Source: Eledone cirrhosa (lineage: Eukaryota). Taken from it: DNA of 64,000 nt. The translations under genes were made by a program, and so were the position numbers. Positions 5,779-54,463 of the stretch are shown in pieces. Numbering within the stretch: the first letter of the stretch is position 1; every line of letters begins with the position of its first letter. The notes under the pieces were generated by a model that was not told where the DNA came from, ran no database searches, and saw only the letters and a list, made by a program, of their open reading frames with translations. The DNA lies in contig OZ024741.1 in NCBI GenBank assembly GCA_964016885.1, positions 391,096,001-391,160,000 on the forward strand, in the 5' to 3' direction.

Positions 5779-6046
5779 ATATATATATATATATATATAT
5801 ATATATATATATATATATAGAGAGAGAGAGAGAGAGAGAGAGGTAGTACACTGGAAGGTAATATCAGTAGTGGTAGAGCATTCAGTCCATGGGACTGTAC
5901 CGAGAACAATTGTTTCACCTTAGCTGATCCTCAGCTCGAGCTGAGGATCAGCTAGGATTCGTTTGCAATTATGCAAACAGCCTCTTTAAGCCATGTCAGT
6001 AGAATGACCCCGTCATTCTTGCTCTTCTGTTTGCATATAATCAGAA

Positions 6047-6090
6047 CGGCAGACACTAATGTTTCTGGGTCATTACTCTTCATCAGTACA
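6047..6090 (-). ncRNA. Degenerate minimal hammerhead ribozyme in a PLE-type terminal remnant (about 5843-6400)
   Basis: Minus strand gta-CTGATGA-agagtaatgaccca-GAAA-CATTAGTG-TC-tgc; tail with GAGTGCT-like motif at 5876-5884. Confidence 0.55.
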
Positions 6091-6644
6091 GTATACTGCT
6101 CACCTGCTAACTGTCAGAGCTAGTGAAAATATATGATATTTTCTGGAATTTACAGTGACTGATCGGCCTGATTACCATATTAACAGACTGTCTGATTAGT
6201 CAGATCTGCATATTAGCAGACCCCCTGATCAGCCAAATTTGCATATCAGCAGATAGGCCAGTCAGTTTTATGTATGGCCGGCTTTGCCATAGTCAAATAA
6301 CTAACAAATAGTTTTATCGCTCTACATTGCTGAATACAAGAAATGTATATTTGAGGTTTTCGAATATTATTAATAATATTCGATTCGTTTGCAATTATGC
6401 ATATATATACACACACAGACATACATATATGTATATATACATATATATAAGGATAAAGATTCCATAACTCCTTGTTATCGAACCAACCAACCAACCAACC
6501 GGAAATTTATAATAAATTGAAATGAAAAACCAACCAACAGTTGCTGTGTATTTATTGGCAGCATGACCCTCCCAAAGTATAACAACATTTATATACATAC
6601 ATACATACATACACACACACATATATATATATATATATATATAT

Positions 6645-6816
6645 ACGAATGTATATATAGTGTATTTTGCAATACACTGTATGCTTAATTAAAAGCATTT
6701 TGAAGACCTTACGCTATTGTTTTAAAGTAGTGACTATGTCACTTACTTCTATTTTCAGCAAACAAGGGGAGATAAGCTGACAGAGCTCTGTTTCATACTG
6801 TTGGTACTTATCAACA
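6645..6816 (-). mobile_element. Copy of the 9991-10410 PLE-terminal family, with U3-A8 hammerhead core at 6775-6814
   Basis: High similarity to 9991-10145; minus strand TTGATAA-GTAC..GTAT-GAAA-CAGAGCTCTG-TC-agct; 5' strand of stem I missing. Confidence 0.7.
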
Positions 6817-6904
6817 CAACGGTACTATTCCACACAATGACAGAGAGAGTAAGAAATATGTGTTTGTGTGTGTGTGCTTGGTACACGTCTATCTATCTAT
6901 CTAT

Positions 6905-51058: not shown

Positions 51059-51350
51059 TATGTATGTATGTATGTATGTATGTATGTATGTATGTATGTA
51101 TGTATGTATGTATGTATGTATGTATGTATGTGTGTATGTATATGTTCTTTTGGTTTTATAATTTTATAAACTTTTATCAATAGCGAGAGAGTCGGTTTCT
51201 AACATAGGTACAAGACTTTCTCATTGAAATTTACACATCAACTAGGTAGATATGTATGCATGTCTGCATGCATGCATGTGTGTGCAGGTATGGATGCTAA
51301 TATATGTGTACATGTGCATATGCTTTGTATCTGTACATGTGAATATGCAG

Positions 51351-53500
51351 TTATAAGATGCAGAATTTTGGAAATGTTTTACATAATTTTACTGTTCTAT
51401 TAATGGATTGTACTTGTAATTTGCTAACTAGTCGTGTTCTTTCTGCTTCTGTGAAGCCCAGCTTCTCAACATGTGTACTGAGGCTGTTACTAACATATCC
51501 CAGTGCCCCAATAATCACAGGCATAAATCTGAAGGTGTAATCAGGGTGGAGTATCTGCAGATTTCTCATCAGTTCTGCATAGATGTTCTCCTTTTCGCTA
51601 ATCTTTAATATTATATAGGCATCTGTTGGGCAGCTAACTTCCACCACTGTGCATGCCTTCTTTTCCCTGTCTCATATTATATCAGGTCTGTTATGCCTGC
51701 ATTTTATTAGGGTTTTTACTGGAACATTCCACCAGTACTTTTCCATATTATGTATTTGTATTTCTTCCACATTGCTGTAATTTTTAATGTGTTTATTGTC
51801 GGGGCTATCTTTTCTACGGATTGCATTGTACAGAGTTTTGGCCACTACATCATGCCTCATAGGTAGATAGTACCGTGATGACATCTTTAGACAACTGCTT
51901 ATGACATGGGTGACATCTTCGACCTTAATTCTGCAGAGTCTGCATTTGTTGCCACATCTAGGTGTTTTGCCTGCATCCCTATCTCTTTTGTGAATCAGGT
52001 ATTTTGTGTTGATTTCCTGTTCTTGGATTGCAAAAGCGTATCCTTCAAAGTGGGAGCCAATATAGCGGTTGTTTGTCCAAGATAGACTACTTTTTTATCT
52101 ATATTACTCTCACTCTGGAGCTGCCTTGTAACATATCCATGAATGATATTTTGCTGATAAGCATGCAGTTTTTCATCCATGGATTCGCTACGGTATTGCT
52201 GGGCAATATCCCTGGGTATCAGTTTTTGATTATCATTCAGGGAGTATCTTTCAAGAAGTTCCTTCTCAAAACTCATGATCTTTCTGTTTCATGCTGACAT
52301 ACTTGCTCAGGAGATGGGCTCCTACGTTTAGGGGTTCGTAAATGTTGTCGAAGGGATATGATGCGACATTCAAATGCTGTCTGGACTGATGTTAGGCCTC
52401 TGCCTCCCTGCTTACGTGTCATGTAGAGGTTGTCTTGTCACTGTTGATGTGGAAGTTTCCGGTGTCGTTTAGGATTTTTCGAGTTTTAACATCAATTACT
52501 CGGATTTCGTCTATCGTCCAATTGAGTATTCCAAATATTGGTGTTAGGACAAACACAGCAAACACATTGGGAGCCCCTGTTTTATTGTGCGCAGAAAGTT
52601 TTGATGACCATAAGTTTCTTAATCGGGTGTAATATTCCCTGGTTACGCGTTCCTTATTACAAATACCATTATAGGATATGTTCTCATCTATCCCCAGGTA
52701 TCTGTAGCAGTCTTCATCAGATAACAGTGAAACAATTAGACCATTTATAGAAATGTTACTAGATTGGGTTATAGTTTTTCCCCGCTTTACAATCATATAT
52801 GAACATTTATCTTGTCCAAACTCCATTCCTATATCTTCTGAACACTTTGTAACCAGGTCAAGATTTTTCTTCATTCCGCTTATGTTCTTGGCATAGAGTT
52901 TCACGTCATCCACAAAAACATTATGGATTAAGTTCGTATTTCTGTACTCCCGTGGGCCTATGATGTATCCTTTACATTTCTTGAGCAGAAAGGACAAGGG
53001 ATTTAACGAAAGGTTAAATAGTAGCACAGAGAGACTGTCTCCTTGAAATATACCCCTGTGATATTCTATTCTATCAGTGAAAATAGTCTTCCTTCTCTGC
53101 TTTTAACTTTAGGATAGTAGCCCAAGAAGAAGACGACTTCTCTATGGCTGTGATAATAATGTGTGGGACTTTAGCAAGTCGGAGGGCCTCTATTATCCAA
53201 GTGTGGGGAACAGAATGAAATGCCTTCCTGTAGTCCAGCCAGACTGTAGCCATTTTCCTCTTATGTTGTCGCACCTTCGACATCGCAGTTTTGTTAATTA
53301 GGAGTTGTTCAGCACACACCCAAATACTTTCTTTCCGGCTGCTTGTTCATCTGTGATGATGTCATTACTGTCGCAGTGATCTTGGAGGAATAGGTTCAGG
53401 TAGGCTATATACATCTTATACATCAGGTTCTGGCATGCAATGGGTCAGTAGTATTTGCCAACTGGGACCAGTTTTGTTTGTTCTATTGGCAACCATTCTG
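51351..53500 (-). mobile_element. R4/Dong-like LINE (RT, CCHC, RLE), decayed
   Basis: WLDYRKAFHSVPH, GIFQGDSL, FVDDVKL, YRYLG, CRLC..HVISSC, RHD, RPDII; many frameshifts. Confidence 0.88.
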
Positions 53501-54254
53501 ATATATGTATGTATGTATTGTAATTGCTCCAGCTACTAAGTGACCTCTGTCCGGACAGCGAAAGCTACTCCTTCATTCCTTTTCTCCACAAATGGTTTCC
53601 ATTTCCAGAAGAACGTATAGCCAACACGTCTTGTTGATAGATGACTTTCACCACTAAAACGGGTTTTAGAGAGTTCATTGGTGGTCGAATTAGGCATCTG
53701 AGAGTTCTTTTTTCAAGTTGGTAGTGCCCACCAAAACGGCTAAGGTCAACACTAAGAGAGAAAGAAAGAAAACTACAGACAAAAATGTGAACTTTTCTCC
53801 GTATATATGTATGTAAACAATTTTTTCACCCATATTTTTATTGTTCTTATTAATATGCAAATTAATTGCATTATACCCTTCTGTCGTGTAAAAAAGCGTA
53901 TAAGCTGAAACCGGTACAAATAATGCGGCAATTCCTATTGTGTAAATAAATGTTTTGATGTTATTCTGAGAGAAAATCCATTTAGCATTTTCTACTGTTT
54001 TTCTTTTTACTATTTTATATATATATATATATATATATATATATATATATATATATATATATATATATATACACACACACATGTGTATATGTAGGTTTGT
54101 GTGCGCGTGTACACACGAACACACTGATGTGTATGTGTACGGATATATATGTGTGTGTCCATGTCCGTATATATATATATATATATATATATATATATAT
54201 ATATATATATATATATATATATATATATATATATATTTATATATATATATATAT

Positions 54255-54463
54255 AATGAAGGAAGTGTGGTAAGGAACCAGGTGGACCATAACGCACCAG
54301 AGTACTCGATACTATTGGTAGTAGAGTGGGTAATAGGAAAAGGTCCAGGGCCCCGACGGCAGAGCTCAAGCCGTTTCGACGGCTATTTCTGGACTAAATT
54401 TAGTCCAGAAATAGCCGCCGAAATGGATTGAGCTCTGCCGTCGGGGTCCTGAACATTTTCCTA
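54255..54463 (-). mobile_element. Fold-back element of the 41405 family: tail plus about 66-bp palindrome arms centred near 54398
   Basis: ..GGCTATTTCTGGACTAAA|TTTAGTCCAGAAATAGCC..; retains only the 3' half of the hammerhead. Confidence 0.85.

Follow-up and report, generated by a model that had tools for sequence, protein, structure and literature searches.

A doubled bulged hairpin adjoins the ends of Hydra-clade Penelope-like elements and is a candidate docking site for their reverse transcriptase

Why should one heptamer, GAGTRCT, recur between hammerhead ribozyme motifs and microsatellites? The question is raised by a 64,000-nucleotide (nt) stretch of Eledone cirrhosa DNA (GenBank assembly GCA_964016885.1, contig OZ024741.1, forward-strand positions 391,096,001–391,160,000), here called the window: animal-like DNA of 36.5% G+C with many microsatellites. 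A first-pass annotation had assigned eleven such sites to unrelated families of Nematis-like Penelope-like elements (PLEs) and had read the heptamer as a conserved cis-signal. Here we find that a bulged hairpin unit contains the heptamer as its 3′ arm, that full-length elements carry this unit twice, and that elements end immediately before one copy or the other. In RNA, the hairpins are predicted docking sites for the reverse transcriptase (RT)–endonuclease (EN), probably setting where reverse transcription starts.

The heptamer is one arm of a bulged hairpin

For comparison we used 99 loci outside the window that encode relatives, grouped into 79 clusters at 75% identity: 78 metagenome stretches, the best of 405 confirmed ones, and 21 loci found in prokaryote assemblies. 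The latter 21 (L079–L099) encode Hydra-clade PLE proteins and are most likely animal host contamination. GAGYRCT was found 87–117 nt past the hammerhead core in 25 of the 44 outside loci that contain a hammerhead pattern and 170 nt of sequence after it (20 of 35 clusters), versus 0.73 in shuffles; many of the remaining 19 loci reach (TA)n earlier, a few carry variants and one core is false. An exact complementary 4-mer lies within 40 nt of 83 of the 95 heptamers in leader or tail context, and removal of duplicates left 71 units in 34 clusters, all of the form GCTC...GAGCACT. The signal is not the annotated 7-mer but a structured hairpin, 25–35 nt long and invariant at 11 positions across the 34 clusters: a TA-rich stretch, RCTC, Y, a variable stem-loop, R, a 2-nt bulge (T-H) and GAGYRCT. 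The bulge reads TT in 45, TC in 18, TA in 7 and TG in 1 of the 71 outside units, and the distance between the arms varies, with a loop of 8–28 nt.

The two arms covary. The first inner pair is Watson–Crick in 69 of 71 units (45 C-G and 24 T-A, with one T-G and one T-T), and the first three inner pairs are 80% paired, versus 52.6 ± 3.2% (maximum 63.9%) in 5,000 permutations of the arms (n = 60). This inner pairing appears only in the register with the 2-nt bulge, other registers giving none; among 66 IMG/VR matches to the pattern that served as a chance control, 16 are paired. A quick EN tree of 41 loci calls for six to seven changes between T-A and C-G, at least three of them forced by starred branches, and a two-sided compensatory change distinguishes the window (ACTC/GAGT) from the outside units (GCTC/GAGC). 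Because MAFFT left the 5′ arms unaligned, we used a script, and a subset of units of equal length, to count covariation; it was also present on an alignment fitted to a covariance model. A covariance model built from 11 outside units gave 120 matches in the outside loci and, when run against the window, ranked the reported sites at 54307, 9323 and 36833 first (E 0.004–0.035), while 9618, 41457 and 35710 scored weakly, amid four unrelated matches. The interior mismatches comprise five G-U, no A-C and four others; the excess of G-U over A-C weakly favours the sense strand.

Units are nearly confined to non-coding sequence (1 in 141,341 coding bases versus 90 in 150,746 other bases), and 67 of 70 units have a TA no more than 10 nt to their 5′ side, versus 25 of 71 control 9-mers. 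In IMG/VR, where Hydra relatives were not found, the doubled pattern occurs at 95 loci, none with a hammerhead upstream, and these were treated as a chance control. A second hairpin in the spacer is clear in 4 of the 11 window tails (z −2.4 to −3.8); it gave no signal in 24 outside spacers (mean z −0.25) and is therefore not claimed as a general feature.

Tandem units and element ends

Full-length elements carry two tandem units, H1 and H2, between the hammerhead and the start codon. Such pairs were found at 32 loci (24 clusters), 56–82 nt apart, with H2 19–47 nt upstream of the ATG; both units are also present in the published Hydra-1_Ajap consensus. Among 34 loci with long open reading frames (ORFs), the leader contains two exact heptamers in 22 cases, one in 4 and none in 8, of which five are cut short of the 5′ end and three apparently carry variants. 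If simple descent accounted for the heptamer, the tails should align throughout. They do not: of 276 cluster pairs, only 11 gave an alignment of the H1–H2 spacers, whereas the unit shows no variation at its 11 positions. In one subclade (L008, L009, L035, L047 and L053), a third, degenerate copy (ACTC...GAGTAGT) precedes H1, on the H1 side of the hammerhead.

To map the ends, 27 hammerhead-bearing 3′ regions were compared with leaders, setting aside six at a contig end, four that read through into the next ORF and one with a false core. Eight of the 16 informative 3′ ends stop 0–6 nt before H1 and six stop 0–4 nt before H2; the other two lie elsewhere, as measured against diverged references. 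Since ends fall before H1 or before H2, the 'tail' of these elements is H1 plus the spacer, and the 35–60 nt reported earlier between heptamer and element end is the spacer up to a second unit, H2, which was not copied. The end that the unit marks is thus the one 0–6 nt on its 5′ side, not the one 35–60 nt downstream. With that correction, three findings support the idea that a conserved cis-signal goes with element ends: conservation across 34 clusters, near-confinement to non-coding leaders and tails, and the end mapping. Genomic 3′ ends were taken here as cDNA starts, whose position relative to the unit is then fixed.

Within the window, seven of seven tail-less arms end within −5 to +1 of H1. 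In the family of the unit at 41451, a (TA)n loose end at 41483, 5–6 nt before H1, recurred in all four runs compared (3,979 reads in X9, 247 contigs in X1 and one contig each in X5 and X6); these runs represent three organisms, organism A possibly being the window's own source, and X9 is restriction-site-associated DNA sequencing (RAD-seq) with uneven cover. All five fold-backs of the window that could be resolved, and two of the three inverted pairs of L089, combine a tailed with a tail-less arm, a layout with a one-sided tail that is known in PLEs (PMC8557442). Over 41405–41547, depth falls past about 41545 in all four runs, roughly 8- to 20-fold in X1 and X9 and less in X5 and X6; fold-back joints lie at about 41545, most copies of the 41451 family being short pieces that begin inside the hammerhead. 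In the RAD run, many reads end together at 41536, possibly at a restriction site.

Heptamer sites and families in the window

All eleven heptamer sites lie within 2 nt of where the first-pass annotation had placed them, nine as exact GAGTRCT and two with one mismatch, at 5876 (GAATGCT) and 10482 (GGGTGCT). At ten sites the heptamer ends 34–59 nt from the microsatellite; at 37047 the interval is about 57–67 nt. Window-wide, the heptamer is modestly enriched (21 occurrences versus 11.1 ± 3.4 in shuffles, 1 of 100 shuffles being as high), but enrichment by position is clear, with a heptamer 30–80 nt upstream of 8 of 63 clean (TA)≥6 junctions versus 0.46 (maximum 3) in shuffles.

The families that carry the sites are not unrelated, as had been supposed: there are about six to seven, related to one another. 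Spacer alignment unites 9323, 41457 and 54307 in one family (z 11–12) and relates 9618 to 10488 (z 4.1); 5876 and 19695 have a hairpin core in common by eye, and remnants of Hydra-type ORFs are linked to three families (35710, 41450 and 19695). A hammerhead core does lie upstream of eight of the eleven sites (52–161 nt before, one decayed), but not of the other three, as 54300 has only the 3′ half of a hammerhead, and 9321 and 46185 are solo tail pieces flanked by microsatellites. The spacers differ as reported, yet the flanks are not unconstrained, for an upstream ACTC pairs with GAGT at nine of the eleven sites; the exceptions are 5876, which is degenerate, and 46185, which has no 5′ arm. 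ATTC replaces ACTC once, in H1 at 41451, where 8,691 of 9,994 reads of run X9 have ACTC. The full hairpin descriptor, composed for the window after the sites had been seen, is satisfied by 7 of the 11. Descriptor matches at 39493 (a repeat resembling tRNA-derived short interspersed elements (SINEs), by eye) and 43564 (within an ORF) were taken as chance. The features are as follows.

31281–35771: near-full-length Hydra element, including its inverted copy
31281–32199, − strand: inverted 5′-truncated copy, 97.9% identical over 919 nt, tail-less, stopping before H1
32204–34332, + strand: frameshifted ORF for a Hydra-clade RT with C-terminal GIY-YIG (DKT, WYNAPF, CxCX5C, no CCHH)
35582–35645, + strand: minimal type I hammerhead motif of the 3′ pseudo-long terminal repeat (pLTR), found by pattern, stems by eye
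35689–35716, + strand: H1 bulged hairpin (ACTC ... TA GAGTGCT), start of the Hydra element tail; the tail-less inverted arm stops here
35690–35771, + strand: unpaired tail (H1 and spacer with a second small hairpin), up to (TA)n
36817–36839, + strand: H1, with hammerhead core at 36710 and inverted tail-less arm at 36545–36622
37048–37077, − strand: H1, with hammerhead core at 37180
9612–9641, − strand: H1 of the fold-back 9560–9862, with hammerhead core at 9744; other arm tail-less
10482–10524, − strand: H1 with a lower-stem G-U and long loop, in the fold-back 10430–10980; other arm tail-less
41451–41477, − strand: H1, with a long-stem-III hammerhead at 41588–41500 and a Hydra EN remnant at 43331–43876
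54301–54327, − strand: H1 of the 41451 family, in the fold-back 54255–54464 with a tail-less arm
9296–9374, + strand: solo tail of the 41451 family, beginning about 5 nt before H1 (9303–9329), with (TA)n on either side
19696–19718, − strand: variant H1 with a 1-nt bulge, decayed hammerhead at about 19863 and Hydra EN C-terminal remnant at 20100–20301
5876–5900, − strand: degenerate H1, hairpin core as at 19696, with minimal hammerhead core at 5934
46181–46238, + strand: tail fragment with the H1 3′ arm only, flanked by microsatellites

Clade of the unit-bearing elements

PLEs of the Hydra clade are described as having DKT, a CxCX5C linker, a C-terminal GIY-YIG without CCHH, an N-terminal RWK motif, a hammerhead near the 3′ end and (TA)n targets (PMC8557442). 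Protein motifs place the unit-bearing elements in this clade instead of Nematis. The window ORF at 32204 reads HSDKTNN, the change from DKG to DKT; both window ORFs lack CCHH, with linkers CNCPVKNKC and CNCRNRSNC; and, judged by pattern, the hammerhead stands near the 3′ end and the targets are (TA)n. RWK is present in full-length homologues such as P0009 and P0016, the window ORF being 5′-truncated. The features of Nematis (DKG, a CX2-5CxxC linker and CCHH in the EN) are absent from the Hydra-type ORFs of the window. The window Hydra protein has 5,271 relatives at E ≤ 0.001 among cluster representatives, and the Hydra-type ORF remnants at 43331–43876 and 20100–20301 are linked to two further motif-bearing families. 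Families 36710/37180, 9744/10630, 5934 and 46187, for which no ORF lies in the window, are putatively assigned to Hydra by likeness only.

As a single negative control, a canonical PLE at 1–2280 (+ strand; DKG, CX4CxxC linker, CCHH) has no unit at its 3′ end. Its uninterrupted ORF of about 760 amino acids is clipped by the window start, and only a degenerate hammerhead-like stretch was seen, near 2490. An Rfam scan of the window returned microsatellite look-alikes only, with no hammerhead and no family matching the unit; a Pfam search gave no match for the Hydra ORF pieces, nor did a protein homology search with the RT piece.

A model of RT docking and its alternatives

Starting from what is observed (the unit, its covariation and doubling, the TA-rich stretch before each copy and the mapped ends), we infer the following course of events. 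The element protein would bind the hairpin in RNA, and the UA-rich template immediately 5′ of the hairpin would anneal to the nicked (TA)n target, which would prime RT there. A start before H1 would give a tail-less copy and a start before H2 a tailed copy, the tail being H1 plus the spacer. If both sites were used, possibly through a dimer that primes from each strand of the target, a fold-back with a tailed and a tail-less arm would result. The hairpin in use would sit behind the RT and stay uncopied, so that only tandem transcripts, or transcripts cut by the ribozyme and circularised, would be good templates; a need for tandem or circular templates was proposed earlier (PMC4209133).

Several observations weigh against this model. 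The 14 mapped ends come from seven clusters, with eight of them from one cluster, and TA microhomology blurs end positions by a few bases. H2 was not seen for the window families (the window has no intact 5′ end, and the loose ends listed include no end at H2), and the published Hydra-1_Obim consensus shows a weak H2 at most. One inverted pair in L089 is tail-less on both arms, and some 5′ junctions also begin just before H1 or H2 (L028, L053 and the solo tail at 9296). Folding energies separate neither RNA from DNA nor sense from antisense, G-U is rare as the first inner pair (1 of 71), and the majority of window tails do not exceed shuffles in stability. In PAc, the Poseidon-clade element of Anolis, the RT starts are not homologous to the cut DNA (PMC11167929), unlike the pairing proposed for the Hydra units.

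The main rival to RNA docking is a signal at the level of DNA, which we regard as unlikely: the GIY-YIG EN would recognise the unit as an extruded or single-stranded hairpin and cut the adjoining TA-rich site, either homing into existing copies, which would give tandems, or resolving an insertion intermediate. A DNA cut would explain directly why 3′ junctions, some 5′ junctions and a solo tail share sites, although 5′ junctions at unit sites can also arise by TA microhomology. The nearly uniform Watson–Crick pairing of the unit would also suit DNA; its interior mismatches, with G-U over A-C at 5:0, agree with sense RNA but with neither cDNA nor a two-sided cruciform. The variable loop argues against a fixed double-stranded site, and short imperfect stems would be unlikely to extrude from duplex DNA. 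In published work, the Drosophila virilis tail is needed for EN recognition of plasmid DNA (as cited in PMC11167929), and PMC8557442 ascribes tails to EN-mediated resolution; by contrast, the tail ends of PAc coincide with RT start sites on RNA (PMC11167929).

Control of expression, whether by a TATA and initiator-like (Inr) promoter or by translational operator hairpins before the AUG, with ends nearby only through TA-rich/(TA)n pairing, is improbable. The TA-rich stretch does stand 20–35 nt before a Y-R dinucleotide, like the consensus spacing of TATA and Inr, and H2 lies 19–47 nt before the ATG; a TATA/Inr-like pair has also been proposed in a rotifer pLTR (PMC3846280). However, a promoter requires no pairing and tolerates little spacer variation, and 14 of 16 ends lie at the TA-rich stretches that abut units, despite many others in the 3′ untranslated regions. 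An operator role would be compatible with RNA docking rather than exclusive of it. We give very little credence to mimicry of a tRNA D-arm by which a host factor that handles tRNAs would be drawn in for processing or circularisation. Three IMG/VR pattern matches (L102, L130 and L187, phage tRNA-like tandems) resemble, by eye, tandem tRNA genes with a GCTC/GAGC stem in the D-arm followed by TA and ACT; in the unit, however, the conserved A and GG of the D-loop give way to a variable stem with an inner Y-R pair, and no anticodon, T-arm or acceptor stem follows. The hallmarks of a D-arm or RNA polymerase III A box (A14, GG18-19 and a cloverleaf) are absent, GCTC being followed in 71 of 71 units by C or T, paired across the loop. 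An origin by shared descent or by chance alone, in the absence of focal constraint, is hardly credible. All carriers are probably Hydra-clade relatives and the window descriptor was composed with the sites in view, yet the spacers rarely align where the unit is invariant, and the covariance model of outside units places three reported sites first in the window. The hammerhead-to-heptamer enrichment, the covariation, and the spacer and coding/non-coding results contradict it as well.

Relation to known systems

The unit itself is real and likely functions as a kind of RT-positioning stem-loop. The 3′ stem-loops of stringent long interspersed elements (LINEs) and SINEs, hepadnaviral epsilon and the template-positioning elements of telomerase RNA are small bulged hairpins that are bound by the cognate RT and fix its start. 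In LINEs the hairpin is positioned 5′ of the start and is itself copied, whereas the Hydra unit lies 3′ of the start and is doubled.

The elements studied here have in common with the Hydra-clade PLEs of PMC8557442 their protein motifs, the 3′ hammerhead, (TA)n targets, and an inverted copy with a one-sided tail. Tails are given there as 30–40 bp, versus 56–95 nt here, and the parts of that paper that were available describe no hairpin unit or doubling. Among its consensi, however, units are clear or nearly clear by eye in four of the six new ones (Hydra-2_Amil, Hydra-1_Ajap, Hydra-2_Ajap and Hydra-1_Crog), which come from coral, sea cucumber and sea louse; Hydra-1_Amil has a degenerate extra copy at its 3′ end and Hydra-1_Obim a weak unit at most. 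In the available supplement of PMC8557442, six 9-mer forms gave seven occurrences, four in Hydra leaders or tails and three internal to Naiad/Chlamys, a count that misses matches spanning line breaks. No description of the unit or its doubling was found in the literature that was covered, which excludes older subscription papers, Repbase reports and figures.

A functional parallel is PAc, in which two internal start sites of the RT delimit the tail, RNA about 55–60 nt 3′ of the starts is required and the targets are AT-rich (PMC11167929). PAc resembles the Hydra units in its two tail-bounding starts, in the needed RNA 3′ of them and in its AT-rich targets; it differs in clade and sequence, and the available part of PMC11167929 defines no binding motif. 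Its starts fall in a stem-loop that is AC-rich, inside the ORF, whereas the Hydra sites are UA-rich, in a non-coding leader and each at one copy of a covarying hairpin. In the PAc template (PMC11167929), at about +53–64 and +94–106 of the ORF, we noted by eye two similar small hairpins of the form GGC-N6/7-GCC. The two are spaced by 41 nt, about one tail length, and an AC-rich stretch directly follows each, but they lie 5′ of the starts; the pair is a hint that PLEs in general may have a doubled cis-element. Extending RNA docking in this direction, we raise the tentative possibility that the PLE tail in general is the distance between two tandem RT-docking RNA elements: the Hydra hairpins would hold the UA template to the nicked (TA)n primer in the manner of telomerase, and a dimer on H1 and H2 would prime both strands, giving the fold-back with a one-sided tail.

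How the protein recognises its RNA, why there are two end positions and why active copies require a tandem structure are open questions in the PLE field, and a conserved, doubled, end-fixed unit turns them into direct mutagenesis tests. Docking hairpins would explain the puzzling optional 'tail' of Hydra-type PLEs. As PLE RTs form the sister group of telomerase RTs, the unit would be a minimal model of how an RNA hairpin positions a template; under the tentative extension raised above, it would also be the first RNA recognition element to be defined in that sister group. It is also usable as a marker for annotating the ends of Hydra-clade elements and their non-autonomous partners.

Other observations

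Outside the window, different Hydra families are stacked in the (TA)n that remains at one another's ends (L089, 4050–5200; L092, 3700–3900; L046, 2560–2690). In the window, other hammerhead-like cores at 8931 and 11590 (+ strand), 40742 (− strand) and 55293 (+ strand) belong to other families and have no unit after them. A frequent SINE-like repeat of about 190 nt, which we take to resemble octopus SINEs, occurs at 17270–17600, 22908–23094, 43808–44003, 46691–47071 and 54661–55116.

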